Shown here: one piece after another, positions 6,930 to 53,331 of the stretch
Layout: each line of letters begins with the position of its first letter
Position numbering within the stretch: the stretch's first letter is position 1
NCBI GenBank assembly: GCA_000004985.1
Contig: GG738909.1
Strand: one strand, 5' to 3'
Length of the DNA: 64,000 bases
DNA from: Naegleria gruberi
Lineage: Eukaryota
Made by a program: the position numbers and the translations under genes
Notes under the pieces: model-generated
Told to the model about the DNA's origin: nothing
The model's database searches: none
What the model saw: the letters and a program-made list of their open reading frames with translations, nothing else

Positions 6930-7548
6930 ATGACTGCCAGAAAAGCCTCTTCTTCCTCTAAGAAAGATTCTTATGATCACCCAAAGTACACTGACATGGT
7001 TCTTGAAGCCATTATTCAATTGAGAAAGAGAAATGGTGCCAGTTTACCAGCTATTAAGAAGTACATGGAAGAAAAGTATGAACTTCCAGAAACCTACAAT
7101 ACTCACTTGAAGTTAGCCATCAAAAAGTTGGTCGAATCTGAAAAGTTGGTCAAGGTCAAGGGTTCTTACAAGGTTGAAGCTGATTACAAGAAGTCTTACA
7201 TGAAGGAAAATAAGATTGTCCTCGAAAAGAAGGAAAGTGATGATGAAGATGAAAAGGAAGATAAGAAGGACAAGAAATCCAAGAAATCGAAGAAGGAAGA
7301 ATCCGATGAATCATCTAAGAAGAAGAAGAAGATAAAAAGAAGAAGTCTACCAAGAAGACCGAAAAGAAAAAGTCCAAGAAGGATGAAAAGACTGCTCCAA
7401 GAGTTTCCAAGCCAAAGAAGACTACCAAGAAGAACTTGAAGGAATCTGCAAAGGTTGATGGTCCAAGAACTGAATCAAGAGTCAAGAAAGCCGCTTCTGC
7501 TACTAGAACTGCTAGATCCAAGGCTAAGCAAGCTGCCAGAGATGAATA
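6930..7548 (+). CDS. Linker histone H1; reading frame is broken as sequenced around 7319..7331
   Basis: ATG at 6930 (MTARKASSSSKKDSYDHPKYTDMVLEAIIQLRKRNGASLPAIKKYMEEKYE = H1/H5 globular domain). Lys-rich tail. After the (aag)n run at 7317..7331 the H1-like tail (KKKKDKKKKSTKKTEKKKSKKDEKTAPRVSKPKKTTKK...SKAKQAARDE, preferred codons, TAA at 7546-7548) continues in the +2 frame. The sequenced frame instead gives an Arg/Pro-rich, rare-codon tail ending at 7439. A single missing G (aagaag[g]at) would restore the frame. Confidence 0.8.
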
Positions 7549-7901
7549 ATTCTACTTCCGATATGATATGAACAACAAATACCTGTGTGAATGCAAATTG
7601 CAACACAACCCTAGGCACAATAGCATTGTAAATATTCCTCTAAGTACAACTCCTAATCATCACAAACAAACAACAATAAATATTTATTATCATCATTAAA
7701 TTAAAATTCACTGAGGGTTTTGAAAAGCATGTATCACAATATCATTTGTTTCTCTATTGTATCAATCAAATCATCAAAACTTATCAACCAACTTGTTCCG
7801 AAGAACAGACCTTGATTAATCAAGCATCAAATGTTCCCGCCTTATTATTAAAATAAATTTACGTTAAAAAAACATCTTTCGTACTTTAAATAACTGAAAA
7901 A

Positions 7902-9711
7902 ATGTCTATACGGGCCATGTCTACAAATGAGTTTGGCTCTCCAAGCAATATGAAGATGGTAGAGCCATCTTTAGGTTCTGTTAATAAGAGAACCTCAACA
8001 GCAAAACAAGGAGCACTTATTAAGAATGTCTCTGGCCGAAGATTACCTCACTCTTTTAATCAAATGAATATTCAACATCAACTCAATGTTCATACAGCAA
8101 AATTTGGAGTTATTGATGATGACGATGAAGAGGAACAGGAAAAGAAGGTTGTAAAGAAAAAGTCTAAACTGAAAAAAGAAGTACCTAGATTGCCTTCCGA
8201 AGAGTTAGCTTCTTCAAGTTACCTCAAATCACGATTAAGTCCAATCAATCACGAGTCGGAACAATTAAGTGGAAGAAGTAGTGCTTCTTCTGTCAGTTCT
8301 AGGTCTCACATTAATCCTCTATTGACTCCAATTTTAGATGAAGATTTTAAAAGAGAGAGATTTGAGGAAACATTAAACAAATCACTTAAAGAAAAGAGTT
8401 TTGAAGGTGAGCGAAAATCAGGACTCAGTTCTTTGAGGAGCAGTAATGATATGGATCTTGCTCCAATGTCGACAAGAAAGAGGGATGAAGAGTTACAGAG
8501 ATCTACATTGGAACCAATCAAGAGACCTCTTTCCAGAACATCGGATTCAAAATTGTTGGGAGCAAGCGTAACAACTACCCATTCTAATAGAGCCAAACTG
8601 TGCATTCAATCGTTGGCTGAGGGATATGTAGATGCTTTTGAGGAATTATTCTTATTGGCCCATAGAGATCCAGTGGTAAGTTTTCTAAAATATTGAATGG
8701 GGTGAATATTCTAATACTATACAATTAGCTTGTGGATGATATTACAGATACCTATTTTACGTTAACGGACGATAGACTCAGATCTATTAAGGAAATGCTT
8801 GTGAAGGCAGAATCTTATAAGAGAAGAGGAAAATTCGAAAAGGTTTATGATATTTTCAAACAAATTGCAGACTATTTTGAATCAGAAAGAGATTATAATA
8901 CAATGTACTATTTCTATGAATTGGGTGAAAATACAGCAAGGAGAGTAAGTTGTCAAACCTAATTGAATCATAACATTTTTCAAAGTCTTCAAATTCACAA
9001 TTAGAAGGACTATCAAAGGAAAATGCTGGTAAAATGTATGAAAGAATGGGGAAGGTCAACATGGCTGTTAAATATCACGAAGCTCATATGAGTTTAGCTC
9101 ACTCAGCAGGCGATCAAGTCCAAGAGGAGAGAGCAATCAATCAATTGTGGAGAGTGTACATGAAGATGGGAGAGGATTCAGAAAATCAATCGGATCTTCA
9201 TAACGCTTGTCTTTTCTATGAAAAGAGTTTAAAGAATGCAAAAATGCTGAAAGATAAGGAAATGATTTCCAATTCTTTATTCAAATTGGGAAATGTATAT
9301 AAATCTCTACAGGACTTTGAGAAGGCAATTGAGTACCAACAAATGTATACTACCGTATGTGAAGACATTGAGGATAAGAAGGGAAAGTCAGATTCATTTT
9401 GTGCTTTGGGAGAGCTTTATGAACAAACAAACGAAATCGATAAGGCAATCGAAACATATAATCAATTTTTATCTAGTGCAGAAGAAGCACAGGATGATGA
9501 CAGAATTGGTACAGCATGTATTAAACTTGGTATGGCCTTGGGGAGTAAGGGCCAACATGACGAAAGTATCGCCTTTTTTGAGAGAAGTTTTGAACTTGCC
9601 AAGAAAACCAAAGATAATGCCAAGATTGGTGAAGCCAAAGTGAGATTGGGTTTTGCAAAAGGTAACGCCTCGATGCAAAAACACATGATGTCTCTGAATA
9701 AAAACTTTTAA
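7902..9711 (+). CDS. TPR-repeat protein, 3 exons (7902..8675, 8729..8944, ~9019..9711)
   Basis: ATG at 7902. GTAAGT donor at 8676 with a caattag acceptor at 8728 (53-nt intron, phase 0). GTAAGT donor at 8945. The second acceptor is ambiguous: AG at 9004 is out of phase, AG at 9018 is in phase (74-nt intron). Exon 3 encodes TPR-like repeats (MYERMGKVNMAVKYHEAHMSLAHSAGD..., FKLGNVYKSLQDFEKAIEY...). TAA at 9709-9711. Confidence 0.6.
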
Positions 9712-10697
9712 TTATTATGTACATTATTTTGACCTGTTTCTTGCATGGCCTGATTCATTAAGCCAGCAACAATTTTTTCCAACATTGGATTTCCTCCATT
9801 GATATCTTGAATTAATTTTACAAGTTCTATATGTACAAGCTTTAGCTTTTCTACTGTTACAGAGAAACTGTTGGTTTCTGTCATCAGTTCCAAAGCATAA
9901 TCCTTTAAAATTTTGTCTGATGATTTTTGTTTCAAAATGTTGAGAAGACGAGTGTCACCTGATTTGAATTGTTCCAAAATACAGTGAATAATTGGGTAAG
10001 AGAACTTTCCCTCTGTTAAATCTTCACAATAACTCTTATTTGTATGATAAATATCACTTTGCAAGTTCAGATAGTCATCCAAAATTTGGAAGAGAACTGA
10101 CAATGAATTAACAAGTGGAGTAAAATCATATGTTTTGCTATCCTTCTGGGTTGAACTTGCTTTCATCAATCCAACTCCAAGTCTAAACAATCCACCAGTC
10201 TTATTTTGCACCATTACAAGATAATCTTGTTCCGAAGGACAAATTCCATTGTCTCTCCAATAAATATCACAACCTTGACCTTCATGTAATAAGAGCAATT
10301 CATCCATAAAGACAGTGATTGCCTCGGAAAATGATTGTTGGTCACTAAAGCTTGAATTTAACTTTTGAATATCCTTCAAAGCTTCAAAATATACATAATT
10401 TGCACAATTGATGGTTGCAGGAGTGCCATAGATGAGGTGAGCACATGGTTTTCCTCTTCTCAATTTACTATTATCTTCAATATCATCAACTAGTAAACTG
10501 GCATTGTGCAATTTATCAATAATACTCTTAATTACATTCAATTCATCTTCGGAAAGTTTAAACCACTCATTAAAAGCATCAATTAACTTGGAACGAAAAC
10601 CCTTTCCATTAGTATTATTAATCAAATAAGAATATGGATCCAAATGAGGCTTTACAGTTCCATTCTTTAATTTCTCATGATGGTCATTCGAATTCAT
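9708..10697 (-). CDS. Geranylgeranyl diphosphate synthase (type III short-chain trans-prenyltransferase)
   Basis: ATG at 10695-10697. First Asp-rich motif LLVDDIEDNSKLRRG. Second motif FQILDDYLNL. Fungal/animal BTS1/GGPS1-like length (329 aa). Its TAA (9708-9710, minus) overlaps the TAA of the convergent TPR gene. Confidence 0.85.
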   Translation of the reverse strand: MNSNDHHEKLKNGTVKPHLDPYSYLINNTNGKGFRSKLIDAFNEWFKLSEDELNVIKSIIDKLHNASLLVDDIEDNSKLRRGKPCAHLIYGTPATINCANYVYFEALKDIQKLNSSFSDQQSFSEAITVFMDELLLLHEGQGCDIYWRDNGICPSEQDYLVMVQNKTGGLFRLGVGLMKASSTQKDSKTYDFTPLVNSLSVLFQILDDYLNLQSDIYHTNKSYCEDLTEGKFSYPIIHCILEQFKSGDTRLLNILKQKSSDKILKDYALELMTETNSFSVTVEKLKLVHIELVKLIQDINGGNPMLEKIVAGLMNQAMQETGQNNVHNN

Positions 10698-11219
10698 TCT
10701 TTTCTCTATACACTATATTTTACACTTCCGATAATTGTTGTGAAAAATTCTCTCTCTTCTATTTACAAAGCCACACACGTAAAACAAAGACTAAATCTCC
10801 CCTTTACGTTTTGATGTTTTTTTTTTAATTTTTAATTAAATAAATTGGTGGTTCCTTGTTCACTCGTCCAAATAGTTAATTTTTGACGTGATTGAAAAAT
10901 TGAAAACACAAGTTGTTGCAACACGTTGGATGGAAACGTTGAACAATGTTCGAACGTACTTCTTTTTTTAATGGTTGGCTAGATGACGTTTTAGATTCAA
11001 TGGAAAATGTTTACAATGGATAATAGAATAATACTTAAATGTATTATATTAAAATAGACCTATTTTGGTGCTTGCAAATTTGCAATGATGTTTAATTAGG
11101 ACCTTGTAGTGCTCCATATTCACTCAGATTGATTCTGTTTCTTGCAAGAAAAGTAATTTACCTGCTCTATCGTGTTGGGCCTTTCTTATTCTTTTTACAA
11201 TGAATAATTTCTCTTTTGG

Positions 11220-12704
11220 TCACTCAATAAAACCATAATTTTTCTTTTTCAGTTGCTTTTTCATACGTTTCAGATACTTGTTTCCATTGTCTATTCCATT
11301 ATCATATACATTTAAATGTTTTAATTTCTTCATTTTGGATAGGTATTTCACTCCTGAATCTTCAATAAAATTCTCAGAAATATCCAGACGTGTTAAGTGT
11401 TTCAATTTAGATAAGGATTTAGCACCTTCAGTTTCAATACTATTTCTATGAACATCAAGTTCAGTCAATTTTTCCAGCTTGCTTATAGATTCAGCTCCTT
11501 CATTTCCAATTGAAATTTCAGAAATCCAAAGTTTAATCAATTGATTCAATCCACTTATTAGTTTTGCCCCCTCATCTCCTAAATTATTAGCTGATATATC
11601 TAAAAAAGTTAAATTTGTCATTTCACTAATTGATTTGGTGCCATCTATTCCTATTAAAGTTGAGTGCATATAAAGTGTTTTCAATTGTTTCATTTCACTT
11701 ATTACCTTTGCACCAGCGTCACCAATCCAGTTGTCACCAATATTCAGACTGATCAGTTGTTTCAAAGAGGTTATTGATTGGACTCCATCAACTGAAACAA
11801 TTTGTATTGCATGAGCTGACAAATTAGTTAATTGTTTCAATTCACATATAAACTTAATTCCTTCCTCATCAATTCCATTTAATCCAACACTCAGATCAGT
11901 CAAATTTTTCATTTGACTAATACATTTGCATCCTTCTGTCCTTATTTCGTTATGATCTATGTCAAGTTTTGTTAGTTGACTTAGTTCTATCAAAGATTTT
12001 ACACCACTATCATCAATACCATTTTCACTTATTTCAAGGCTTGTCAATTGTTTCATTCCAATCATTGATTCAATACCCAAGTTTGTGATCTTACACTTAC
12101 TAATATTTAGAATAGTCAGTTTTTCAAGTTTTGATAAATATTCAACAGCCTTATAACCAATATCATTATAGCCAATACTCAATTCCGTAAGATTAATCAA
12201 ATTACCAATTGATTGAGTTGCTTCCGAACTAATCACATTACTTATCAGATCAAGTTTCTTCAATTGGTCCATCTTACTAATAATTTTAGCACCATCATCA
12301 TCAATTAAATAGGAATCAAATACCAGAGTTTGCAAATTCTTAAACTTCCCAAATACCTTTAAACTTTCATTACATATTTTCGATTCCTCCGTAAAGTGCA
12401 CTCCACAAATACATTCCAAAAATTGGCTCCTTTCCATTAATTTAATTCTTTCCTCATCAATGGGCTGTTTAAATTTCAAATAAATTTCCGAACGTTCCTT
12501 GATTACTCTCATCCATTGTCTTGATATACGAGTGTAATTTTTCAAAACAAACCAATTTGAATATTTACCTCCTATAAGAAAGGAAATAATTTCAAAACAA
12601 ATGTCATCGGGAAATTCTTTAATTTCATGCTGATGACTGATTATTACTTGGTTATTCTCTTCTGTGAAGTTGGGATCAATTCCTGTTTCTCGTAATCGTT
12701 TCAT
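11220..12704 (-). CDS. F-box-like / RNI-type leucine-rich repeat protein
   Basis: Likely ATG at 12702-12704 (MKRLRETGIDPNF...). The ORF-track start at 12911 reads through the tRNA-Gln gene and is not credible. N-terminal F-box-like segment IKEFPDDICFEIISFL. About 12 RNI-like LRRs (LTELSIGYNDIGYKAVEYLSKLEKLTILNISKCKITNLGIESM...). TGA at 11220-11222. Confidence 0.75.
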   Translation of the reverse strand: MKRLRETGIDPNFTEENNQVIISHQHEIKEFPDDICFEIISFLIGGKYSNWFVLKNYTRISRQWMRVIKERSEIYLKFKQPIDEERIKLMERSQFLECICGVHFTEESKICNESLKVFGKFKNLQTLVFDSYLIDDDGAKIISKMDQLKKLDLISNVISSEATQSIGNLINLTELSIGYNDIGYKAVEYLSKLEKLTILNISKCKITNLGIESMIGMKQLTSLEISENGIDDSGVKSLIELSQLTKLDIDHNEIRTEGCKCISQMKNLTDLSVGLNGIDEEGIKFICELKQLTNLSAHAIQIVSVDGVQSITSLKQLISLNIGDNWIGDAGAKVISEMKQLKTLYMHSTLIGIDGTKSISEMTNLTFLDISANNLGDEGAKLISGLNQLIKLWISEISIGNEGAESISKLEKLTELDVHRNSIETEGAKSLSKLKHLTRLDISENFIEDSGVKYLSKMKKLKHLNVYDNGIDNGNKYLKRMKKQLKKKNYGFIE

Positions 12705-12811
12705 TTTTTTTATTGTAAAAACAAATCGACTCTTTCGCAATAGCAGCGAGCCAAAACCAAGCCTAACCTTAATTGATGTAAGATTTACTGCCTTTTTACA
12801 ATAATGTGCTC

Positions 12812-12882
12812 GTCTCGTGGTGTAATGGTAGCATAGTGGACTTTGAATCCATTGACGGAGGTTCGATTCCTCCCGAGACGGT
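12812..12882 (+). tRNA. tRNA-Gln (anticodon TTG)
   Basis: cgtctcg tg gtgtaatggtagcat a gtgga ctTTGaa tccat tgac ggaggttcgattcctcc cgagacg g. 7-bp acceptor stem, D-arm GTGTAATGGT, anticodon loop cttTTGaa, T-arm GGTTCGATTCC. The overall sequence closely resembles eukaryotic tRNA-Gln(UUG). Confidence 0.85.
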
Positions 12883-13237
12883 AAACGTGGCGAGCCATAC
12901 GAATTTTGCATGTGGACGATAACTATTTTTTTACTTTCCTGGTATAGCCATTTCTTGAAATACCATTAGAATCGAAAATATTAATTGGGTTTTTTGAAAT
13001 TGTTCAGATATTTATGTAATGTACAAAAGGAATTCAAAGAAGAGGAATATTAACTTTCTATTGGAATTCTAGTGATATTTTTGAGACTTTGCATATTTCT
13101 ATTGGGAATACTATTTTGGACGCTTTTCAGTTTAACAATATCTTTAGAAATTCGTTCCTATTGCGATAAAGGAATATTCTTTATATTCATTGTATTAAGG
13201 GAAAATTGTTCATATTTCACATTGTAAGTAACTGAAT

Positions 13238-13355
13238 GGCTACGGCCATATCACGATGAATGCACCTCATCCCGTCCGATTTGAGAAGTTAAGCATCGTC
13301 GAGCCACATCAGTACTGAGGTTGGAGACAACTTGGGAACCTGTGGTGCTCTAGTC
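13238..13355 (+). rRNA. 5S ribosomal RNA, copy 2
   Basis: Identical to copy 1 (2416..2533) except g->c 5 nt from the 3' end. Followed by ttttt at 13356..13360. Confidence 0.9.
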
Positions 13356-13504
13356 TTTTTATATTCATTTTGACTTTTGTGAAATTAGTCTTGGTTTTTA
13401 TTCATTTAATACTTGAATTAATACTATTGATAGCTATGTAAAAAATATTTTAAAATAATTTCCTGAAACATTCATGAATAGTGTATATTTACTTTGAATA
13501 TAAT

Positions 13505-13577
13505 GGGGATGTAGCTCACATGGTAGAGCGCTTCTTTAGCATGGAAGAGGTACGGGGATCGATACCCCGCATCTCCA
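13505..13577 (+). tRNA. tRNA-Ala (anticodon AGC)
   Basis: ggggatg ta gctc acatggta gagc g cttct ttAGCat ggaag aggt acggggatcgataccccg catctcc a. G3:U70 identity pair present. Anticodon loop ttAGCat. Confidence 0.9.
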
Positions 13578-13905
13578 CTTCTATCTTTTTTGTACTTTTT
13601 ACAGCACATTAATTATTTACTGTTCTTTGCATGTTCCTTGACCACATGAAACTCTACACAAAAACTATTTATTCGATTGAAAACCAATAAACTACCACAT
13701 TAAACTCTAAAAAAATGCAAGTATTTGAATTTAAGAAATCCATTAAGAACAATCCATTCGCCCTTACAACCGATTCCTTAACAATTTTGTTGAACAAGAT
13801 TATTTAGCAGAGGCGTTATTTGCTTTATACTTTTTAATAGAGAATGAAAGTTCATTTCCTATCACTATTACTTTCTTAAAGTTCCATGAATTGAATAGGG
13901 AAGAA

Positions 13906-14688
13906 ATGGATTATCTAAATGAGCACTGTCCTAGATTTGGAATTACTGACGAACACATTAGCATGTATTCAGATATTGCAGAGAGATACATTTCCTTTGA
14001 TAAGTATAGTACATGCCCAATTGTTTCTGTATTGCAAAAAGAACTTCCTTTCGTTCATAGTGTTTCAGCAAGTCCAAATCAATTTTCACATGGAAAGACA
14101 GATTTGGTTATTAAGAAATATTCCTTTGAGAAAAGTTATGAGTATGTGATTAATGAGCTAGAATTTCATAGAAAGTATAGTCATCCAAATATATAGTACC
14201 ATATTAGTTTAAAAAAGGATGAAATTACTCTGGTCATGGAATACAAGAATGGAACTGGTTATACACCAAAGAATTTTAAAGATATTCAAAGTTACATGAG
14301 TCAATTATTGAATGCATGTGCCTACATGAGACATAATTTTGTAACTCATCACAATTTGAAACCTGATAATATCGTTTATGATAGAAATGATTCAGTGCTG
14401 AAAATAATTGATGTTGAATATTGTAGACATGTTGCTGGACGATTTAATATTGGAAATCCATTTTACAAAGCTCCTGAAAAAGAGAATTACGGCACTGTAG
14501 GACCATCCTCTGATATGTACAGTGTTGGAATTATTTTTCGAAATATTGTTAAATCTAATTATTATGAAAAGACAAGAGAATCAGGTCAATTAGCAGATGC
14601 TTTGATTTTGAAAATGCTTTCGAAATATAAGGAGGTCAGAATTGATCCATTAAGAGCACTTGAACATGAATTTTTTACAATAAATTAA
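13906..14688 (+). pseudogene. Protein-kinase-like gene with degenerate catalytic motifs and an in-frame TAG (14194..14196)
   Basis: Kinase fold is recognisable (…HRKYSHPNI | YHISLKKDEITLVMEYKNG…, HHNLKPDNIVYD, IDVEY, YKAPE, DMYSVGII). No Gly-rich loop (GKTDLVIKKY). HRD becomes HHN (catalytic Asp to Asn). DFG becomes DVE. One in-frame TAG interrupts subdomain IV-V at 14194-14196. No GT-AG intron of length divisible by 3 can remove it. TAG is used as a true stop elsewhere in this window (TPS and SMYD genes). Confidence 0.6.
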
Positions 14689-15129
14689 TTTGATTGAAGA
14701 CCAATCAGAGCAGCTGCAGATTGTTATACGAGAAGGAGTTCTTCGGGATGTTCTGTTGACTGTGCTTGTTTTATGTGGAAAGGAGTGAGTGAATTCAATT
14801 TGAATCATGATTTGAAGATTTACACAACAAGTCATAATCATGAAGGTATTGGTTTTGTTGGTGGATTCATGTTAATGTTAGATAAGTATCAATTCACTCA
14901 AATTGGAACCTTGTCTAGAAGTGAATTTCCCTGCAGGAGGAACTAGTGCAATAATTCCATCTGGTGCGAATATTCTCAAGAATGATTATACACTTACTGC
15001 ATTACTATTTGGAAAATTGATTTATTTGTTTGAATTGAATGAGAAAAAGTTTGTGAATCTCCATAAATATGAAGATTGCCAAATCGAAAAAGATGTAAAT
15101 TAAAAAGTGTAAACTATTCTAAGAAGAAT

Positions 15130-16176: not shown

Positions 16177-16373
16177 ATTTTTTTTCAGTGTGTTGTTTAA
16201 CCAAGTTCCAAATCACAAGTCAACCAAAAATTGACATTCAAAATTGAAATGTTACTGAATTGACATTACAAAGACAAAGGAAGAAGAAGTATTGATAAAA
16301 GTTATTAAAAGGTACTACTTCCATTCATATTGTTATTTAATTTTGTGAGGAATTTACATGAATTTATTTACAA

Positions 16374-17543: not shown

Positions 17544-17768
17544 TTTGGTTGTTGTTGTGTGAAATATATTATTGTTTGGTTGTTTTTTTTTGTTGTGAAA
17601 TACAGCTATCTGATCGTGTGTTAATAATAGCTTAATGCAAAATATTTTCACCCACTTTTGCTTGAAGCAAGTTTTTTTGCGACGGATGGTATCTTGCTAC
17701 AAATATCTTTGCTTCAAAACCACCCGAAAATATTCAATCATATGTTGTTTAAATTTTATTAACCAGAT

Positions 17769-17859
17769 GGTGAGTTGGTCGAGTGGTCTAAGACGACACG
17801 TTAAGGTATGCCTAATACCGTGTTCCGCAAGGGCGTGGGTTCAAATCCCACACTCATCA
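17769..17859 (+). tRNA. Class II tRNA, probably tRNA-Leu (anticodon AAG), with a probable 11-nt intron
   Basis: ggtgagt tg gtc gagtggtctaa gac ga acacg ttAAGg [tatgcctaata] c cgtgt tccgcaagggc gtggg ttcaaat cccac actcatc a. 7-bp acceptor stem with one G-U pair. 3-bp D-stem with the GAGTGGTCTAA loop typical of Leu/Ser. 11-nt variable arm. The anticodon stem acacg/cgtgt encloses 18 nt, consistent with a 7-nt loop plus an intron after position 37. Followed by a T-run (ttttttatct). The anticodon and intron assignment is an inference. Confidence 0.7.
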
Positions 17860-18035
17860 ATTTTTTATCTCATCTCAAGCTGATCAATTTGAAAAGTGAA
17901 GTATTCAGAATATTGTATTTTATAGAGCAACTGAACTGAATGAAGAATAATGATATTAGTGTTCGTAGGTGATTGGTTTCAAAGATTAAGAAAGGTGAAA
18001 TATTCCAAAATGAAAAAACTTAAATACTTTTTACT

Positions 18036-35276: not shown

Positions 35277-35683
35277 AACTTCATGGAGTGATGATAACAG
35301 TTGTTATCGAAATCTTAATAAAGCATTCCTCACCTTTGGTTAATACACCCCATTCTGCATTAGAAGAATCTGGCTATGGAATATTACATGCAGTATTATT
35401 CGCCCGTGAATTCATCCAAAGTTGTATCATTTCCTTATTAATATATACAACTGCTTTTCCAACGCAAATATTCTCTTAAGATTTCTTATTGCCAATATAA
35501 ACCACGAATCAACCTTTGAACTTGGCAAAAAAAAAGGTTCATTCGCTCGCTCTCACATAAATAATAATTATCGTGCTGTCTGTTGGGAGATATAGTTATC
35601 ACAACCATCAACACAACTCGGCTTGATATTTTTTTAGTCTATCAAAGGTATCATCAATCATTGTACATTATTATGAAAAAAAG

Positions 35684-36835
35684 ATGGGAAGCGCAATCTC
35701 TCATCAACCGACAAGTAAGGAAGATAAGAAGATTAAAAAGAAGGTTAAAAAGAAGAAACAAAAGGATGTAAGTATTTTACTTTTGGAAATTTGGAAAATC
35801 ATAATTAAATAGCTTCAAAAATCATTAGAAGCCTCACTTGGAAATCTTGTTTCACCCGAGGAAATTACTCAATTTTTTAATTTATATTCATCTCCGAAAC
35901 TATTGGAGGAATGTTTCTTTGATTTTGAAACATTATATGAAAAGCTATTGGATAATAATGGAGAGGTGAGAAAACTCAAAGTTAATCTAGCTGTTATCAA
36001 TATTCAAAAGTGGTGTGAGAGTCGATTAAAAACGAGACTTGTTGCCAATGTATTACGAGTTACAGAGAGAAAGAAATTGGGATTTGGTTTGGTTCATGTT
36101 GCAATTCTGTTGGGACAATACATTATTCATTGGTTTGATGACGGATTGGTTCATCTGACTCCTATTAAATCCTCACATCCAAATCTTGCTGTTGAAGTTG
36201 GAGAGCTGGATATTGAAGAAAAAAAGGATCAGGAGAAGATTAAACAATTATGCTTTGTGATTTCAGAATATAACACCAAGATGGTGTATAATAATAGGAA
36301 TTGTAATTGTCATCATTTTGTTAGAGATTGCATCAGTGCATTGGATTTGAATTTCTCTTCAATAATGAAAGGACAACTTGGAAATTATCTAAGGAGAATA
36401 AGAAATGGAAAATTACTTACAGAAAGAGAATTCTGTAATCCTATCACTCAAGAAAGAGTGCTGTTTAATACTCACAAACAATTAGATGAATATGTGATCG
36501 ATCTGTTAACAAAACACCCATCTTTCAAAGAAGAGCATCCCTATGATTTTGAGTTATTGAAAGCGTTTGATAGAGGATTCTGGATGGGACATCTCAAAGA
36601 CAAACATGAAAAACTCAAACAAGCAGAAGGACTTCATTATACGTGGAATGAAATATTTCTTCCTCTCATCAAACAAGAAGAGAAAGAGGAAATTGAAAAA
36701 CTTCCTGATGTTGAGGAAACTGCTGAAACTGAAACAATTGTATGCTCTTCTTTTGTGCATTCCATAATTTTTCATGAAAATTATGTCTGTCCATTTGGAG
36801 ATCCACATACTGTTGGATGCTTTTTAGATGTCTAA
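35684..36835 (+). CDS. N-myristoylated PPPDE/DeSI-like (DUF862) putative peptidase, 2 exons (35684..35767, 35813..36835)
   Basis: ATG at 35684 gives MGSAISHQP (Gly2/Ser6 myristoylation consensus). Exon 1 ends at GTAAGT (35768). The aaatag acceptor at 35812 defines a 45-nt intron, phase 0. PPPDE dyad: His in GFGLVHVAILLG and Cys in YNNRNCNCHHFVRDCISAL (compare DeSI HLMHKNCNHFSSALSEIL). Conserved C-terminal module LLKAFDRGFW...CPFGDPHTVGCF. Confidence 0.65.
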
Positions 36836-38784: not shown

Positions 38785-38829
38785 ACAGTACTGAGAATTC
38801 AACCAATCACAACAGTCCTTTACAATAAT

Positions 38830-40195
38830 TTATTCATCATCTTCGTCTTCTACATCAGAACTGGTGTCTTCATATCCACAAACGGTTTCATATTGTTCAT
38901 ATTCAAGAATTAAATCTTCGAAATTCCACTCAGCCTCATCCATTTCCATTTCGTCCATTCCTTCATTAAGGAAGTGTGAAAGATATGCCTTTCTTTTTAA
39001 TTGGTTTTTAAATGTGTCTCTAATTCTTTTGAAAGCCTGAGTTATGAAAGTAGCATTTGAAATCATTGAAGCAGAGCTGTTGAATTTACAGACAGGTGAA
39101 ATTGTTTCACATAAGGATGTATGAATACTGCTATGTATCCATTTGGAGAATTGAGATTCATTCTGTATTTTGATTTTTCCAGCACATTCTTCTATCATTG
39201 AAATATTCGAAATGGTACCTCTATAACAAATATTGCTAGTCAAGTATTTACCTTGTTGTGAATTGAGAGTAAGGAGATTATTTGATGAATCAAACAGATT
39301 TCTGGTTAAGGTTTCCAGAGTCGACTTGATTCCATTTTTCACATTCACTTCCATTTGTGATCTAGATATTGAGAAAAAGTGAAGCCTAGGATACGTAACC
39401 AGATTTGTTGCCAATTTTCTGTATGAAGAATTAAGACTCTGAGAAAATCTAAAAGGACTCGTGTACTCACACACCGATTGTGCTATTAAATCATTCAAAT
39501 TCTCATAGCCACAACTCTCCAGTTTAACTTCCTTCCTACAATACTGTTCCAAAGCCTGATTATCAAATAAAGTAACAAAAGTTGAAGCCAATAATGATTG
39601 AACTGAAAGTACAGAATTATAATAGGAAAGGGATCTACCTCCAAAACATTCTTCTGATGGCAAAACTGAAGTTGTGCCTATAAACTTTGATGGATAATCA
39701 TCAGAGAGGTGAGTAAGAATTTTTGAACCGAGTCCTGATCCAGATCCACCAATTATTGAATGAAAAACCTGAAATCCATCCAAGTAATCACATTGTTCAA
39801 TTCTCCTTCTTACTTGATCCATAATTTTCGGCTCAAGTAAGGATCCATCAGTGTAATATCCATTTCCAAATGAATTTCCATTCCCACAATTACCAAAGGT
39901 TGCAAACTTTGATTCCAATAACTTCTCATTAGACAGCAGTATCGAATTGATTGCCTCACTCTCCAAATCAGCTCATCACCACTCTCGGCACAAATTTACC
40001 ATCCTCTTTCTCATGAAGGAAAATATTACAATGTTCTTCAGCTATAGCTTTTAATTGATCGGATGAGGTTGCTGAATCAATCTTCTCTCCTGTAAATATA
40101 TTGAGGTGATGTTCCCTCATTAAATGTTTCCAAAATGATGACCCGATTCTATTACCACATCCTCCTATACAAATACTAACAATATCTTTCATCAA
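38830..40195 (-). CDS. Epsilon-tubulin; single-base frameshift as sequenced near 39968..39972
   Basis: ATGATG at 40190-40195 (MMKDIVSICIGGCGNRIGSSFWKHLMREHH, the tubulin GQCGNQIG N-terminus). After ...KFVPRVVMS a TGA occurs. The +1 frame continues ADLESEAINSILL...GFQVFHSIIGGSGSGLGSKILTHLSDDYP. Joined, PRVVMADLESEAINSIL matches the epsilon-tubulin signature (ARAVLIDMEEGVVNEIL in human TUBE1), and GGSGSGLG is the tubulin GGGTGSG motif. One extra nucleotide (atgAgct) breaks the frame. Confidence 0.75.
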
Positions 40196-40829: not shown

Positions 40830-42921
40830 ATGGGAAATCTTAGTTCAAGTCGATTGACTGAGTTTGATTCTGCTCAAACTCAGCAGCCCCAACCTCCAAA
40901 TACCAATAATAGAAAGAGTGATGCGAGTAAGAAAAAAGACTTGACGCCTGATACTATTGTTCTAGGAAAGATTGAGGCTAGCAAATTAATTTCATCTAAA
41001 TTTAAGAAACAATCGGAAAAGGAAGCTTTTGCTAGACAACTGGCATTTGAAGATGAATTGAAACGAAATTTCCTCAATATGGAATTCGTACAACAATATC
41101 TAGAGCGAGAATACTATAGAAAACAACAGGATTTAAATTCATTGAATAGAGCTAGAATGTATCAGAGAGCTTCATCAATACCTGGGATAAGTGTGTCACC
41201 TCCTATTGTTCCTACCACTTCCCGAGGATCAGAAGCAGAAGCATCAGAATCAACTGGAGATGCAGATCAGGATGATGATGAGGAAGTTGAGCCAACTGTT
41301 GTAGCAAAAGCAACAAATTTGTATAGAGCTTTTAGAAAATCAATTGGAAGGTCTATTGGTTCTGAAGCTTCTTCTAGTCAAGATATATTCTCAAATCCGG
41401 CTGGACCTTATACTATAGATACTTTCTCTGCAGGCAATACCTTGACAGTTGGTGATGTCAATAATATTCTTTCCAGTGAAACTAAGCAAGAACAGGAATT
41501 AGATCCAATGCAAGATATTACATTCAAAATCAAATTGATTTTGGTGGATACTTTGAAGAGTGACACTCAAAAGAATATGAGACAATTCATTTCTCCAATT
41601 TTGGCAAAGATGGACAAGTTACCAAACCATGGTATTTTCCATTCTTCTATTAGTTTTGGACCATGGATTTTAGAATTTACAGACTGCGGTCTGTGTATTC
41701 CAAGAAAAATAACGAGTAAGATGGCTCTTCTCTCAATAGACATTAGTGAAATTAAGGGTTGGGATAACATTCAACAAGCTGTAAATAGAATTGCAAAAGT
41801 AGTCTGCAGATATAACACTCAAGTCACCTATTCTAGAAGTAGTACTAGAAGAGATTCGGTTATTTTTTCAAGTCCATCATCCCAATTAGCAATTGAAGGG
41901 CAAAGAAGATATTCTGATGCCCTATACGGATCCCCATATGGTACTCCAACAACTCCTGATTGTGTTTGTTTGAGTCCTCCAATTGGTGGTAGTGCTACTC
42001 TGACAGCTGTAGCTCAAACATTCGGTTCAGGATCTTCATCAGGTCTTGGTGCTGATTCAGGTAAATCAAATAATGGTGAAAGGTTTAGTCATTCTTTCCA
42101 TTCTCAGCACTCAGCACAAAATAAGGATCCTAAAACAAATGGAAACTGTCAAGATTTTGGTAAGTGAATTATCATTTTAGAATATTTTCTATATTTTCTA
42201 TATAGTTGATGAAATCTTGGATAATCTTGAAGCAACACCGGTATTTTCAGAATCTATGCATCAATTCCTTCGAAATTTGAGAAATAAGGGTGACAGTAAT
42301 CTTACTATTAAATTGGATGATCAATTTTTACAAAAGTTTGGTTTGGAGAATAATTCCTTTAATAATATCAAGGAAATGCTCACTCCAAAAAACCCTCTCA
42401 GCAGTGAGGTTAAATCTGTTCACTCAGTCCCAGATAATATGCTGACTACAGAAGCAGTGCAGCAGACATCAAGGAAAAGAAGTAAGAGTGAAGGTGTTCC
42501 ACGAGAAGTTGAAACTAATCCAATGGCATTCATTGAAATTCAAAATTATTGCATTACTTTCAACACCCATGAACAATTGGATTTGTTTGTAAATTTGTTG
42601 CTCACCAAAGATCCAATCTTTCCACGTACCAATCCACAAACCTATGAATTACTAAAGGCGTTTGATAGAGCTTTCTGGATTAAGTACAAATCAGCCCTCC
42701 TGTACAAACCAAATAACTTTAATCACAACCACCAACATGACCCACAACTTGAAATATTATCCTGGGCTCCTCTAAATATGCAATCCAAGACAATAGAAAT
42801 TGCAAGCAATTTAATGATTTGGAATGGAGAGAGAAAAAGAGTTCCGATAAATCAAAACCAACAATTGGGATGTCCTTTTGGTGATCCATTTTCCACAATG
42901 TCCTTCATTCACATTGAATAA
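40830..42921 (+). CDS. N-myristoylated paralog of the PPPDE/DeSI-like gene, catalytic Cys motif lost; 2 exons (40830..42159, 42206..42921)
   Basis: ATG at 40830 gives MGNLSSSRL (myristoylation consensus). Exon 1 ends at GTAAGT (42160). The tatatag acceptor at 42205 defines a 46-nt intron, phase 1. Retains the His region NHGIFHSSISFGPW and the YNTQVTY segment. Where the paralog has NCNCHHF this gene has SRSSTRRDS. Shares the C-terminal module FNTHEQLD...YELLKAFDRAFW...GCPFGDPFSTMSF. Confidence 0.6.
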
Positions 42922-43027
42922 TAAATCATTATCGTCATGCAAAATAATATTAAACACAAATCATTATTGCATTATTATAATTCATAAAAAAGTCTGTGCC
43001 ATTTTTTTCCTTTAAATAACTCATTTA

Positions 43028-45293: not shown

Positions 45294-46659
45294 TTTCTTC
45301 TTTTCCGTCAACAAAAACTGGGTGATAATTTTTGGAGGAAAAAACAGAGGGATGGTTGGGATATTTTTTAAGGCTCTTGTCGCCACGCGTTTTACAATAA
45401 ATGAACGTCTAATTTTAGAGCGGTTTTTATCAAAGGCTGGAAAAAAATACTCAACAACAATTGTGATTCTCGGAATGGTTTAAATAATACATCATCAGGA
45501 AGGTGAAACATCATATTCCCAACAATGATAATGGCACTTTCAATTCCCTTTCATTTAAATGGTTGTTGGTTCTCCTAAAGATGGTTTCCTGGAAAATGTT
45601 TGTAACGAGTGCAATGATATCCACGAAAGATAATAAGTGAGTTGTGACTTATTTCGAACGATGTAATTTATGAAATTTTATCATTTCATCATGATGATTT
45701 TAAATTTATTGTAATGAATTGTGCATTGGTTTCAAAACAGTGGTTCAATGCTATCAACATGTCATCTTTCCGTTAAATGTAAAGGCGAAGGAATAACTGG
45801 TCCATATTACAAAATATTATAATGTGTAACATTTACATGATTGCAAAATTGATTTGTAGTATGGAAATGTGAAAATTTTTATAGAGAAGAGAAATTTGGA
45901 GGATTATTTTGATGGAAAGTGCTTGTTCTTATTCTCAAAGATATGTTACATTACAATCCAGACAAAAGGCCATCTTGTAATCCAAGACATATTAAAAAGT
46001 GTATTTTATTAAGGATATATTCATGGATTGACTACATTATCTCACCAATACTATTTTGAATGATTCATTCAAGAGCTCTATAACAAAACGCTGGGCTATT
46101 TTATCTGAAAAGTTGTGCTTAACCGAAACCAGAAAAGCCCTAATATATTTCAAAGGTTCAAGACACTGAATTGTATCCCATCTGTTTTGGATGTGAAGCA
46201 TCTTCTCTGAAAAGGAAGAAACGTCTTGTCTAATATTATTATCCATTTAAATATTTTGATGAAAGTCTAATTTACTCTGAATTAAGTTCAGTTTATAGAT
46301 TCATTTCTGTATTCAGTCCATTTACTATGGCAGCAATTTTGATTTGAAATTTTAAGGGTTTTCCCAATTCTGTTGAAAACAACCTATCCGTTCTAGTAAT
46401 TTTGATGGGAGAATTACCATGCAATAAGATATTGTTCAATAAATTCATATATTAAAAATTCATCAATTATTAATTTCAAATCAAAACAAAATTCAACCGA
46501 AACAAACAATATTTTATTGAATCACCCAATCAAATAGATAACACAAGCAAAATAAATAATTTTGACCGATTTGCCCACATCAAAAGCGAATATTTTTTAT
46601 TCAATCAAAACGATAACCGCAGACTTTGTAATTTTGCTGAAAAAAAATTCTCAACAACA

Positions 46660-46947
46660 ATGTCTTCATTCAACAAACTCGCTAGAGTCTTCGTCTCCAA
46701 TCTCACTTACACTGCTAAATGGCAAGCTGTTAAGACTCACTTCTCTCAATCTGGTAACGTTACCTTCGTCAAACTCATTGTTGACCAAGCTACTCAAAAG
46801 CCAAAGGGTATGGGTGTTGTTACTTTCGAAAAGCCAGAAGAAGCCGAACACGCCATCAAGACTTTGAACGGAAGCGACTTCGAAGGTAGACAAATCAAAG
46901 TTAGAGAATATGTAGAAAGAGCTCCAAGAACTGAAGAATCACAATAA
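46660..46947 (+). CDS. Small single-RRM RNA-binding protein (95 aa)
   Basis: ATG at 46660. RNP2 RVFVSNL. RNP1 KGMGVVTF. TAA at 46945-46947. Confidence 0.7.
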   Translation: MSSFNKLARVFVSNLTYTAKWQAVKTHFSQSGNVTFVKLIVDQATQKPKGMGVVTFEKPEEAEHAIKTLNGSDFEGRQIKVREYVERAPRTEESQ

Positions 46948-47057
46948 TTAAATTTATAAAATATTAAACTAGGCTCTGTTCATCTTTTTGAATTTGAAAA
47001 TAAATTAATAGACTTTTTTTGATGAATAATATCATTAATAATAATGAAGTAATTTAT

Positions 47058-49499: not shown

Positions 49500-50358
49500 T
49501 ATTATTATAGTTGATATTTAGATTTTGAAAAAATCCTCTATGATGATGATGCTATTATGAGAGTCAAAATGATGACGTCTTCTTTAGATCGTTTGTTGTT
49601 GTCTTGATGAAAAGGCTAAAAGGCTTTCTTCTATTTTTGCTTTTTTTTCGTACAGTTCGGCATTTAAATTCGCTTTGATACGCATCAAAGATTTCTTGAA
49701 CAATGGACAGCGAAGTGGATTAAAGAATCCATTTACAATTCGCTTGTTACCTGAGAAATTTGAATTGTGTACGTGGCTGTCAACTGTTTACATAATATTT
49801 CAAAAAGAAGTTGTCTGGGTTATGAAGTTTCATTGAGAAGAATAACATGTTGGTCAAACTGCAATAAGTAAAAACAACAAAGATGCTCCATTCTCTCTCA
49901 CTACTAAAAAGGTTGAATATCCAGTTTAAGTTTCCCTCCTTTTGCTCTTAAATTTCATTTAACCTCAAGTTGTAAGGTATGATGGAATACAATAACAGAA
50001 TGCAAATGGATGGCAGTTCAGAATGAATCAGATTCATGCTGATTTTCGTTACAAGTCATTCGACTATTTACTGGAAACAATGATTCTGCAAAATCAATTA
50101 TGTTTGGGTTATTCATTGTATTGTCTCCATCTTCGTAATTTTACAAACTATTGCTTTAGTTCATTGATAGAACTAATATGTTATTAGTAATTGAGAAAGT
50201 CTCAAGACAAGAACTCATACATAAAGAATATTGATTCATAGCAATTATTAAGTATTTAATAAGGCAATTTTTACAAAAATGATATCTACAATTTTTTATT
50301 GGCTTAGTTTTTCTGTTGTAAGGGAAAAGTTAATGGTCAATTAATATTGATCAAAATC

Positions 50359-51050
50359 TCAATTACTTACTTGGATTGGCAAGAAAAGTCTGAACTCATC
50401 TGGAAGATCAGATTCTGAATACAGTCTGTCGGAGAAGTAAATTCTTCTAATTCTACAGTTGGCATGGATTTGAACTCTTAATGTCTCTATATAATTTGTT
50501 CCGTAAGCTCTTCTCGTAAAGTCGGCAAGATTGAACTGAATTTGATTCCAACCTTCATCCAAACGCATTGGCATTGTACAAATAAATGGTTTCACTCTTG
50601 TTGTACTCTGATAGTTCGATGCTCTAAATCTTCTTTTAATATTTTTATCATCCAAAACTTGAACTTCGAAAGTAAAATACTTTTTCAACTAATTATTGTT
50701 GATGTATCCTTATTCATCATCCGATTCTTACTTACATTTTTAATAACCATGACAAGGAAAGGTAATTTGATTCCTAGAGTTTTCTTTGCGCTGGCTGGGC
50801 AAGTAATATATGTTGTGCTAACATTTGTCCCGATAAGTTCAAGAACAGAGGATTGAATATCTTGATCGGTAATACGTTTAATGTGTCCATTCTTTACCTG
50901 TTTGTCCCAAATTTGTAAGGGTTTACTTCTACTCAGGTAAAACAAGAACAATTTGTTGTTGTATTAAAATCATCACCCATTTGCAATTAATACATACCCT
51001 ATTGAATACAATATAGAGAGAAATCCACTTTGAAATGTATTTTTGAACAT
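50359..51050 (-). CDS. CFAP20: CFAP20 / Bug22 (cilia- and flagella-associated protein 20), 3 exons (50998..51050, 50736..50928, 50359..50688)
   Basis: ATG at 51048-51050 ([17 protein letters not shown]). GTATGT donor at 50997 with a 69-nt intron. Exon 2 encodes [27 protein letters not shown]...[16 protein letters not shown] donor at 50735 with a 47-nt intron. Exon 3 encodes [54 protein letters not shown].... The joined 191-aa protein is nearly identical in pattern to the known CFAP20 sequence. Confidence 0.85.
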
Positions 51051-51613
51051 TTTTTTCTATTTTGTTTTTCCCTCAGTAACGAAAATACAGTAGATTTTAG
51101 TTGTAATTTAAAATTTGGCGGGAAGTCAAAAAGAAACGTTAACCACCACAAAATTTACGAAAACCATTGAGTGAAGTCTTACGCTAGAAAATTTACAAAT
51201 AATTGTAAATATTCATTACTCTCTTAATACTTGAGAAGTTTAATTTTAAATATTTCACTTGATTGTGTGTAGGTATTCACACCACTACTTTTCATCTAAA
51301 TGGTGCTTAGTAAATCATCTTCTCTTTCAATGTTGTTTACCTGCTCTAACTGACAAATTCAAAGAAGAGACCAATTGAATTTGGTTTAACCACGACCTCC
51401 ACTAAAACTCCAGATTACACTGCGAATAATCTTTTGAATTCAATTGATTTCTATTACAAAATAAGTGAGAGATGATAATAAAACATTCAAATTTATAATT
51501 TAAATGATTTCAAATTGTTTGAATCGAAATTGTTTCCAACAAACATCCTTGTGTAAATTTCAATATTACCTTCCTTCAATTTGAGAGTGATATTTCTCCA
51601 AGAGTTTAAATTA

Positions 51614-53331
51614 TTAGAGTTGCTTTTCCTTGATGTAGACTTCTGCAAATTTCTCGATAATTCTTTCTTTTGCTAACATGAATTCAGCAGCTTTGGCTGT
51701 TAAAGTTTCCGATTCCTTTCTCTTTCTATATTCATCTATTTAATTATCATCAATTATTTAATTATTTAATAAATATTATCATGCAAATGAACATTTACCA
51801 TCCAATCCAATAAATAAATTATTATTTAATAATCATCACAAGAATTAAAACACGTACAAAATCCAGTTTTTACCATGAAAACTTCCATTGAAAATCCGAC
51901 ACCAAAAAAGAATGGAACAATATACATGACATCATTCATTATTGATTTCTTTCCGATTTGTGCTTTTTGCAAGACAAAACTAACCAAATGAAGTGGCTTT
52001 GCAGAGTAATAAATAATCTTTTCAAGCATTTTTTATAATTTTTGTTTTTTGTTTGGTGATTCATAGGCAGAAGAGGATGCTTCACCTTGATTGGAATTCG
52101 AATTGAGCATGTGATGGAAGGGACATACTCTATTTGAGGAATTTGAATGATGAGTACTCGATGTGCTAATGTTGGAAGATGATGGCTCTGAATTTGCATG
52201 TTCACTACTAAGGGAAGGAGATTCGAAAGTGGCTATGATACAGTCCGTAAGGATAGTGGTTTTGGAAGTACAATGTTTGAGATTGGATTTGAGGAAAGAG
52301 TTTGATTTCCTTCTCGCAAGGTAAAATAAATAATCAAAATTTGAAAGATAATGAGAAATTTCAGTAAAACCTTTTTCAGTCAAAATATTAATTGGTGATT
52401 TTCCAAGCTTTTTGAAATTCCAATAAATATTAAAATATTAAAAACAAACCTTATTTACATAATCTTTTTGAATTCCAGCTTTCAATAATAATTTAACCAT
52501 TTCCAAATTCCCTTTTTTACACGCCTTATGAAGTGCTGTTTCTCCAGACTTTCCAAGTTAGTATCTATGAATTTAAATGGAATACATACCACATCAATTA
52601 AATTTACATTTGCATTCTTTGAGATTAAATACTTTACAATTTCAAGTTTTCCTCCATTTACAGCAAATTGCAAAGCAGAACAATTATACTATTACATGTA
52701 AGAAATAAGTGATCATCAAAATGCATACTTACTCCAAATCTGTCAATTGTGTCGACATTGAAAAACTTCACTTCCACTAATTCTTTCATCTTTTCAAGAT
52801 TTCCGTTTATGGCAGAATCAAAAAAATAGCAAATGTCACCTTGTGGTTGATCAGTATTTCTGTGATCCATTATAATATTTGCATTTGGAAGAGCATTTAC
52901 AGGTGGCCTTTCTTGAATTCCTTTAAGTAGAGATTCATAATTCTTTGGTATTCTTAATGTCCCTTTTGAAAACAATGATTTTGGCTTGTTGTTGGAAGGA
53001 TCAGTAGTGGATGCATGCATTGATGTTACAGATGAAGATGTGGTTGTTGTAGTTGTGTGATGAAAAGGACACTTATTAACTTGCTTCTCTTCCAACACAG
53101 TATTGAAGGATTATCAGAGGCAGCATGGTCATCACTGTTGGAGTTTTGGGATTCTCTGTTAATATTATTGGATACTGGCATCATGGAAGATGCATGCGGG
53201 CAGTATTGAGAGGATTCTCCCCCCACTGCACTCAACTCGCTTACATGAGAGTTTTCCTCCTGTTGTTGTTGCTGATGAAATGGACAAACAGAGAGAGCCT
53301 TCTTCTGTTCTTCCTCTGATGGTTTTTGCAT
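51614..53331 (-). CDS. Ankyrin-repeat protein with three CPFH motifs; structure unresolved (frameshift about 53098, in-frame TAA at 52033..52035 followed by a TM-segment-encoding region)
   Basis: Upstream part: MQKPSEEEQKKALSVCPFHQQ... (ORF 53026..53331). A 1-nt frame change follows into EEKQVNKCPFHHTTTTTT...DICYFFDSAINGNLEKMKELVE (ANK1). Introns follow into ALQFAVNGGKLEIVKYLISKNANVN (ANK2) and GKSGETALHKACKKGNLEMVKLLLKAGIQKDY (ANK3). The C-terminal exon ends ...SNRVCPFHHMLNS...PNKKQKL-TAA at 52033. Exactly 3 nt later, in the same frame, ATG at 52027-52029 opens MLEKIIYYSAKPLHLVSFVLQKAQIGKKSIMNDVMYIVPFFFGVGFSMEVFM. A final exon ends ...TAKAAEFMLAKERIIEKFAEVYIKEKQL-TAA at 51614. Whether this is one gene or two is unresolved. 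Confidence 0.4.

Follow-up and report, generated by a model that had tools for sequence, protein, structure and literature searches.

Four genes in a 64,000-nucleotide stretch of the Naegleria gruberi NEG-M reference assembly (the whole stretch that was analysed, called here the window, which is part of a 250,472-bp contig) carry one single-nucleotide defect each, and are otherwise open across 206 codons in histone H1, 260 in a kinase-like gene, 453 in a tubulin and 391 in an ankyrin/CPFH gene. The defects are a missing base in H1, a TAG-creating substitution in what we recognize as a pseudokinase, an extra base in the tubulin and a missing base in the ankyrin/CPFH gene. On balance we favor a technical origin for all four, as consensus or base-calling errors of the draft that would not exist in the DNA of the amoeba, because the genes are otherwise intact and three of the four keep their frame in relatives (the H1 orthologs, the tubulin paralog and the kinase ortholog). 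The original prediction had counted five independent disruptions; the fifth site is the boundary between two genes. The features concerned are the following.

6930..7549, plus strand: linker histone H1 gene (Pfam Linker_histone, PF00538, 2.2e-21)
7317..7338, plus strand: lesion (a), one base missing in AAGAAGAAGAAGAAG-ATA-AAAAG, the conserved frame being lost within (AAG)5-ATA-AAAAG
13909..14688, plus strand: conserved pseudokinase gene (Pfam Pkinase, 4e-23)
14194..14196, plus strand: lesion (b), in-frame TAG within HPNI*YH of the kinase domain
38830..40192, minus strand: highly divergent beta-like tubulin gene (Pfam Tubulin 2e-42, Tubulin_C 3e-18; 453 codons after removal of the extra base)
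39968..39973, minus strand: lesion (c), one base too many in ATG-AGC-TGA-T, so that a TGA interrupts the conserved PRVVMxDLE segment
50304..51050, minus strand: CFA20/BUG22 flagellar gene, four exons, intact (Pfam CFA20_dom 1.8e-93, profile positions 1-184 of 185)
51614..52029, minus strand: small SMIM4/UQCC5-like (UPF0640) gene, 97 aa (exons 52029-51858 and 51735-51614; intron 51857-51736, GTACGT..AG)
52033..52035, minus strand: site (e), a claimed lesion, in fact the TAA at which the ankyrin gene truly ends; the next ORF belongs to a separate gene
52033..53331, minus strand: ankyrin-repeat gene with three CPFH motifs (Pfam Ank families; ATG at 53331)
52732-52689, 52589-52549 and 52449-52408, minus strand: the three real introns of the ankyrin gene (donors GTAAGT, GTATGT and GTTTGT)
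53072..53110, minus strand: lesion (d), one base missing in a 39-nt interval in which the frame must change

Gene content and genetic code of the window

About 29 of the roughly 33 genes in the window are intact, so that the density is four lesions per ~33 genes. The exons of four RefSeq/JGI protein models (P0001, P0091, P0102 and P0222) map to it at 100% identity, and the assembly is one that we take to be an unfinished whole-genome Sanger draft from JGI, at about 8x. The use of the standard genetic code is confirmed, because TAA, TAG and TGA all terminate genes here (23, 3 and 2 times, respectively, among 28 gene-end stops). Reading frames as long as 1380 codons are free of all three; stop-codon reassignment is therefore ruled out, as had been correctly argued before.

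Around 20 real introns are present in the window, with donors that are mostly GTAAGT or GTATGT and a few others. When all same-strand ORF junctions were scanned, a short canonical intron was present at every break besides the lesions, and none was found at sites (a), (c) and (d). Short introns are numerous in the N. gruberi genome, and had not been considered in the original prediction.

The interrupted genes and their public models

The H1 reading frame opens with the ATG at 6930 and encodes in frame 0 the globular domain and an acidic/basic linker, after which the conserved Lys-rich C-terminal tail is encoded in the -1 frame, between about 7334 and the TAA at 7549. The earlier claim that the frame is lost in an (aag)n run, and that one missing base restores a Lys-rich tail, thus holds in the sequence; this base could be the second G in AAG-GAT, or else a sixth A. 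Past the lesion, frame 0 stays open until a stop at 7437-7439, and the codon-usage score of the tail is +33.8 in the -1 frame versus -14.2 in frame 0. In the orthologs P0090 and P0092 a single ORF encodes the whole protein, with a tail corresponding to the -1 frame of N. gruberi H1, and in an alignment with locus L001 the differences sit at third positions of that same frame. A winged-helix globular domain (PF00538) followed by a Lys-rich tail that is conserved in orthologs, albeit in the -1 frame here, identifies the product as a linker histone, the only one that our search found in N. gruberi. No GT..AG intron was found at the lesion, not even a candidate, and the RefSeq model P0091 (169 aa) simply stays in frame 0, ending in a spurious Arg-rich tail.

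The kinase-like gene had been noted for an in-frame TAG at 14194 and for degenerate HRD and DFG motifs. Both are there, HHN replacing HRD and DVE replacing DFG, and only the view of the motifs as a sign of decay has to be given up, as they are shared with the ortholog P0223 (locus L002). The latter is 57% identical over 180 aligned residues spanning the lesion, has HNN and DLE at the corresponding motifs and is without about 50 residues of the C-lobe. Because the degenerate motifs are conserved between species, the sequences indicate a maintained pseudokinase. As in other conserved pseudokinases the kinase fold is kept while the DFG motif and the catalytic Asp of HRD have given way to other residues, here alike in two Naegleria species; what sets the N. 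gruberi copy apart is the additional TAG. This position is a Leu in P0223 (HPNIL), and a single substitution, TTG to TAG, would suffice to create the stop. The RefSeq model P0222 omits 14142-14207, a 66-nt in-frame GTATGT..AG stretch coding for residues conserved in P0223, and loses with it 22 residues that include the HPNI motif and the Glu of INELEF, which we take to be the alpha-C Glu.

On the minus strand, positions 39982-39967 of the tubulin gene read ...GTG GTG ATG AGC TGA T.., and dropping any single base of AGCT restores PRVVM(A/S/T)DLESEAINSIL. The paralog P0002, which is 51% identical to the lesioned gene, has an uninterrupted PRVVMADLEAETIES at this position and keeps PRVVMADLE. The extra base lies outside any homopolymer. 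The gene had been described as an epsilon-tubulin with an extra base at about 39968..39972 that brings a TGA into its signature; the lesion is as described and the epsilon label is wrong. Of the non-Naegleria matches listed with a named source, nearly all are beta-tubulins, with ~35-38% identity for the best of them, and all 60 PDB matches listed are beta chains (~296 bits). Within the homology search made, the lesioned gene and P0002 form a pair found only in N. gruberi, at 36% and 45% identity to canonical beta-tubulin, respectively. The RefSeq model P0001 excises 39979-39925, 55 nt with a GTGATG donor, thereby deleting 18 conserved residues around PRVVMxDLE.

In the ankyrin/CPFH gene, a 1-nt change of frame had been placed near 53098, and it does occur, between 53110 and 53072. 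Upstream of it, frame 0 alone is open and has a positive coding score, and contains CPFH motif 1; downstream the same is true only of the -1 frame, which contains motifs 2 and 3 together with the ankyrin repeats. A search of this lesion for an intron with a consensus donor gave none. The RefSeq model P0102 removes 53080-52953 (128 nt with a GTTAAT donor, ~42 codons), deleting CPFH motif 2. This 557-aa 'predicted protein' is a chimera of the ankyrin gene, the small SMIM4/UQCC5-like gene and, in part, the flagellar CFA20 gene. Site (e), presented as an in-frame TAA within the ankyrin gene, is not a lesion: TAA 52035-52033 is the natural stop of that gene, and the ATG of the SMIM4/UQCC5-like gene follows 3 nt later, with CFA20 further downstream. 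The splice of the small gene is the one used within P0102, and its UPF0640 assignment relies on a weak match to PF15114 (E 0.0087, 16.4 bits versus a cut-off of 27, profile positions 22-64 of 67), the sole Pfam family that matches the product.

Origin of the lesions

In the scenario that we favor, errors of base calling or consensus, probably in thinly covered stretches of the draft, would have produced the four defects, which automatic gene prediction then masked. The predictor ran H1 on in the wrong frame, elsewhere invented GT..AG 'introns' cutting 18 codons from the tubulin, 22 from the kinase and ~42 from the ankyrin gene, and joined the latter to its two downstream neighbors. The searches gave no ortholog of the ankyrin gene; here, the recurrence of the CPFH motif on either side of the shift supports conservation of the frame. 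Three indels in ~45 kb of coding sequence amount to ~7e-5 per base, which would be within reach of an unfinished 8x Sanger draft, and it would be extraordinary if a free-living organism had fixed or heterozygous null alleles in ~12% of its genes. Also, other assemblies of the Naegleria group (heteroloboseans) needed similar read-based frameshift correction. As in other unfinished shotgun drafts whose errors are masked by artificial introns, a lone single-base defect interrupts each intact ORF, with conservation in three of the four, and is hidden either by a run-on in the wrong frame or by a short GT..AG gap, at the cost of conserved residues or of a recurring motif. Our case differs from these in that a technical origin has to be deduced, and in features that speak against such an origin: three indels and a nonsense substitution in 46 kb are at the high end for a Sanger consensus, and no homopolymer surrounds the base inserted in the tubulin. 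Also against it, NEG-M is reported to be heterozygous, so one allele could truly carry the lesions, and the tubulin has diverged more from canonical beta-tubulin than its paralog has, which would fit relaxed constraint.

The main alternative, possible if rather doubtful, is that the lesions are real and very young, that is, loss- or altered-function alleles on the haplotype picked by the assembler, with an intact second allele covering each gene in a heterozygous clone long propagated axenically. One isolated lesion per intact gene suits a recent mutation as well as an error; the frameshifted H1 tail is still basic (AAG Lys being read as AGA Arg) and could be tolerated, and the lesioned tubulin is the faster-evolving member of its N. 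gruberi pair. The likeness to heterozygous loss-of-function alleles of clonal diploid or polyploid protists, by which the lesions here would be young and one per gene with the functional frame perfectly preserved, ends with the second allele, which is not seen here: protein searches gave no second allele or homeolog, each lesioned gene forming a one-member cluster. Four disabling alleles in ~33 genes would moreover be far above what decades of culture should accumulate, and exceed typical natural null-allele loads. Long-standing pseudogenes, meaning duplicates or ohnologs decaying without function, are an unlikely source, despite a kinase that lacks both the DFG motif and the catalytic Asp of HRD, an ortholog of it on L002 that misses part of its C-lobe, and a highly divergent tubulin. 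Indeed, at ~34% G+C a neutral ORF would soon gather stops, and exactly one defect per gene is seen; relative to its ortholog the H1 tail varies at third codon positions, and our search found no other linker histone in N. gruberi, while the degenerate motifs of the kinase are kept across species. Several lesions per gene and a loss of purifying selection, the marks of old pseudogenes, are thus not what we observe. The likely cause, either consensus error or very young lesions of one allele, was among the options of the original prediction (error, pseudogenisation or recoding); degenerate ohnologs are at odds with a single defect per otherwise open ORF and with conservation in relatives for three of the four.

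That the breaks are real short introns, as the RefSeq models have it, is very improbable. The best candidate is in the kinase, where 14142-14207 has a consensus GTATGT donor, an AG acceptor and a length of 66 nt that is in frame and falls inside the size range of real introns here; it encodes, however, residues conserved in P0223. One of the three 'introns' codes for the recurring CPFH motif and the others for residues that the paralog or ortholog conserves (VVMADLE..., YVINELEFHRKYSHPNI), the GTGATG and GTTAAT donors of the tubulin and ankyrin models are unlike the GTAAGT or GTATGT of most real introns, and H1 lacks any candidate. Programmed recoding seems to us the least probable explanation of all. 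Ribosomes would have to make a stop-triggered +1 shift at AGC-UGA-U in the tubulin, shift by -1 both in the ankyrin gene and within the AAG/A-rich run of H1, and read through the TAG of the kinase; Naegleria would then use site-specific translational recoding to make full-length proteins from a genomic sequence that is correct as it stands. Stop-triggered +1 frameshifting is known from the antizyme site (UCC-UGA-U, a sense codon followed by UGA-U) and from the AAA-UAA/UAG motifs of Euplotes, and the tubulin site has the former arrangement, a one-base skip giving the conserved PRVVMSDLES. In contrast to those systems, the tubulin paralog P0002 is without the site and the H1 orthologs P0090 and P0092 are likewise unshifted; the other shifts are of opposite sign, with neither an X-XXY-YYZ slippery heptamer nor a 0-frame stop in H1 or the ankyrin gene. 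The 88-94 nt that follow the tubulin, H1 and kinase TAG sites are no more stably folded than shuffled sequence (z = +0.90, 0.00 and +1.11), the three stop codons are ordinary terminators here, and literature searches turned up no recoding of these kinds in Naegleria.

Consequences for Naegleria gene models

The value of our results lies mainly in curation. The caution that the original prediction urged for gene models in this window was justified, as all four of the affected public models are wrong: at these sites, four RefSeq/UniProt entries of N. gruberi contain between them an erroneous H1 tail, three spurious introns and one fusion of three genes. Phylogenies, proteomics databases and structure predictions built on these models inherit the errors. 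If the lesions were instead real, the region would show young null alleles at an unusually high density in an amoeba that is clonal and heterozygous, a finding of moderate interest for research on asexual propagation.

Reading frames across the window

Lesions (a) to (d) of the original prediction are present in the public sequence, while the fifth, (e), is a gene boundary. The window is gene-dense, with a G+C content of ~34%, and roughly 29 of its ~33 genes are intact. We considered introns, which the original prediction had not, listed all adjacent same-strand ORF pairs and tested each for a joining splice; apart from the claimed lesions, each ORF break is closed by a short intron (41-203 nt). 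These introns have GTAAGT or GTATGT as donor, occasionally GTAGGT, GTAAAT, GTACGT or GTTTGT, and the spliced products run without interruption, with full-length domains where the family is known.

Introns whose splicing joins adjacent ORFs
5695-5744, plus strand
5897-5950, plus strand
8676-8728, plus strand
8945-8985, plus strand
35768-35812, plus strand
42160-42205, plus strand
63243-63289, plus strand
1075-873, minus strand
44655-44567, minus strand
44122-43971, minus strand
55854-55811, minus strand
Ankyrin gene, minus strand, three introns
Small gene after the ankyrin gene, minus strand, one intron
CFA20, minus strand, three introns

At sites (a), (c) and (d) the splice search gave just weak GT..AG pairs, none of them with a consensus donor, and introns were rejected as the cause. 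Genes here end on TAA, TAG and TGA alike, so the genetic code is standard and codon reassignment was rightly discounted from the start. The exons of the public models of the tubulin (P0001), H1 (P0091), ankyrin/CPFH (P0102) and kinase-like (P0222) genes are 100% identical to the window by tblastn, which makes the window part of the NEG-M reference assembly, an unfinished JGI Sanger shotgun draft of ~8x.

Two neighboring genes (35681-36835 and 40830-42921, both plus strand) have in common a C-terminal region without a Pfam match, with the motifs F(x)THxQLDxxVxxLLTKxPxF, ELLKAFDRxFW and, at the end, CPFGDP. The pair would seem to be paralogs belonging to an undescribed family. ARAGORN also made three calls:

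12810-12882, plus strand, tRNA-Gln(TTG)
13505-13578, plus strand, tRNA-Ala(AGC)
17768-17860, plus strand, odd 93-nt tRNA-like call with a two-base anticodon

Since the tRNA-Gln call overlaps the 5' end of an opposite-strand LRR ORF (11220-12911) over its whole length, one of the two must be wrong, the tRNA call or the start of the ORF.

Histone H1 and a divergent tubulin

6930, plus strand, ATG of the H1 ORF, which encodes a linker-histone globular domain (PF00538, 2.2e-21)
7317-7338, plus strand, lesion (a), a frame break within AAGAAGAAGAAGAAG-ATA-AAAAG

Past this break, frame 0 runs into IKRRSLPRRPKRKSPRR... and stops at 7437-7439, whereas the -1 frame reads DKKKKSTKKTEKKKSKKDEKTAPRVSKPK...AARDE and ends at 7549. 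Two orthologs from metagenome-derived Naegleria, P0090 (204 aa; 76% identical by BLASTP, 79% in the alignment) and P0092 (192 aa), are each encoded by a single ORF, and their tails match the -1-frame tail at nearly every residue. At the nucleotide level, many of the differences between the tail and the P0090 locus (L001) are at third positions of the -1 frame, and a codon-usage score trained on the long ORFs gives the tail +33.8 in the -1 frame, versus -14.2 in frame 0. This conservation and the codon score indicate that the functional frame has been maintained until now and that the assembly is short of one base, bearing out the proposal that a Lys-rich tail lies one base away from the frame lost in the aag run. 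RefSeq P0091 (169 aa), the sole N. gruberi linker histone returned by our H1 search, reads straight on in frame 0. Scans of JGI metagenomes with a 25-nt H1 block identical in the window and L001, or with the H1 protein, returned nothing, or a relative at 44% identity. The frameshifted tail (7332-7439, plus strand; IKRRSLPRRPKRKSPRRMKR...) is still strongly basic, since a one-base shift turns AAG (Lys) into AGA (Arg). If the frameshift were real, the tail would be shortened and altered with its charge retained.

In the tubulin gene, the minus strand at lesion (c) reads ...CCG AGA GTG GTG ATG AGC TGA TTT GGA GAG TGA..., and removing any single base of AGCT restores PRVVM(A/S/T)DLESEAINSILLSNEKLLESKF. 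The N. gruberi paralog P0002, on another contig and 51% identical, carries PRVVMADLEAETIES unbroken. The public model P0001, named 'beta-tubulin [Naegleria gruberi]' and 96% identical to the frame-corrected query, cuts out 39979-39925 (55 nt, GTGATG donor) and thereby deletes 18 conserved residues. The extra base and the TGA in a conserved segment were thus correctly predicted, but the epsilon label was not: the protein (38830-40192) is beta-like. Nearly all non-Naegleria matches listed with a source name are beta-tubulins (best ~35-38% identity), as are all 60 PDB chains listed. Identity to a canonical beta-tubulin is 36%, versus 45% for P0002, and we found no homolog above ~38% identity in other organisms. 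Human beta-tubulin is 74-75% identical to the flagellar class and 57-58% to the mitotic class (Velle et al.). That study describes four mitotic tubulins; the window does not contain their qPCR primers, and its tubulin was ruled out as a member of that set. Together with P0002 it seems to form a third beta-like class of N. gruberi, and a very divergent one.

The pseudokinase and the ankyrin/CPFH gene

14194-14196, plus strand, lesion (b), an in-frame TAG within HPNI*YH

This TAG, as predicted, interrupts a kinase-like gene. Searching exhaustively without a profile recovered its public model, P0222, and a single ortholog, P0223, which comes from a different metagenome (locus L002) and is 57% identical over 180 aligned residues spanning the lesion. 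Where the window has TAG, P0223 has Leu (HPNIL); a single TTG-to-TAG substitution thus suffices. HRD is replaced by HHN in the window and HNN in P0223, and DFG by DVE and DLE; the motifs first called degenerate are therefore conserved pseudokinase features and not decay. P0222 omits 14142-14207 (66 nt, in frame, GTATGT donor), which is exon sequence because the YVINELEFHRKYSHPNI it encodes is conserved in P0223 as DVISEIEFHRKFFHPNI. The altered motifs are conserved between two Naegleria species (13909-14688, plus strand, and L002:373-1150). The L002 copy is without ~50 C-lobe residues; its frame may be preserved by a 40-nt intron (GTAAAA..ATAG).

In the ankyrin/CPFH gene (minus strand), the one frame that is both open and positively scored is that of ATG 53331 upstream of 53110, and the -1 frame downstream. 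A C-P-F-H motif occurs on each side of the shift (SVCPFHQ upstream; NKCPFHH and RVCPFHH downstream), so both frames encode parts of one protein and one base is missing within 53110-53072, in agreement with the change first placed near 53098. As our search found no ortholog, the evidence for lesion (d) is internal. The three motifs (53290-53279, 53071-53060 and 52126-52115, minus strand) sit in low-complexity regions flanking the ankyrin repeats, and presumably resemble Cys-Pro heme-regulatory motifs.

The TAA at 52033, once counted as lesion (e), is the natural ankyrin stop (52035-52033), and a separate gene follows.

52029 (ATG) to 51614, minus strand, small gene of 97 aa with one intron (51857-51736, GTACGT..AG)
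51050-50304, minus strand, CFA20, profile matched end to end (1.8e-93)

The sole Pfam match of the small-gene product is UPF0640 (SMIM4/UQCC5 family), weak and below cut-off (E 0.0087). P0102 (557 aa, 'predicted protein'; 53331-50304, minus strand) is a chimera of these three unrelated genes: it invents a 128-nt gap (53080-52953) in the ankyrin part, skips the ankyrin C-terminus and TAA, enters the small ORF and then CFA20, whose true N-terminus (from 51050) it lacks. The small-gene ATG lies 3 nt past the ankyrin stop on the same strand and frame (52035-52027, TAA AAA ATG), so that any separate promoter or 5' UTR must overlap the upstream coding region. A bicistronic transcript or reinitiation after termination is a possibility.

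Origin of the lesions

Programmed recoding, one of the options initially put forward, finds no support: neither the H1 orthologs nor the tubulin paralog show an interruption, H1 lacks a slippery heptamer, and shuffled sequence folds just as well as that downstream of the tubulin and H1 lesions and the kinase TAG. One defect per gene in an AT-rich genome, together with sequence conservation in relatives, rules out old pseudogenes. This leaves two readings, errors in the draft consensus or very young allele-specific mutations in a strain that is heterozygous according to a published report. We favor errors: three indels in ~45 kb of coding sequence (~7e-5 per base) are plausible for the thinly covered parts of an unfinished 8x draft, null alleles in ~12% of genes would, we infer, far exceed culture-time mutation or ordinary genetic load, and similar frameshift repairs from reads have been reported for other heterolobosean assemblies. 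The literature searched reports no frameshifts, pseudogenes or assembly errors specific to N. gruberi.

The observation largely holds for the public sequence, and is ordinary in kind. The early caution about gene models in this region was warranted, and the main value of the finding is that it pinpoints four wrong public protein models.
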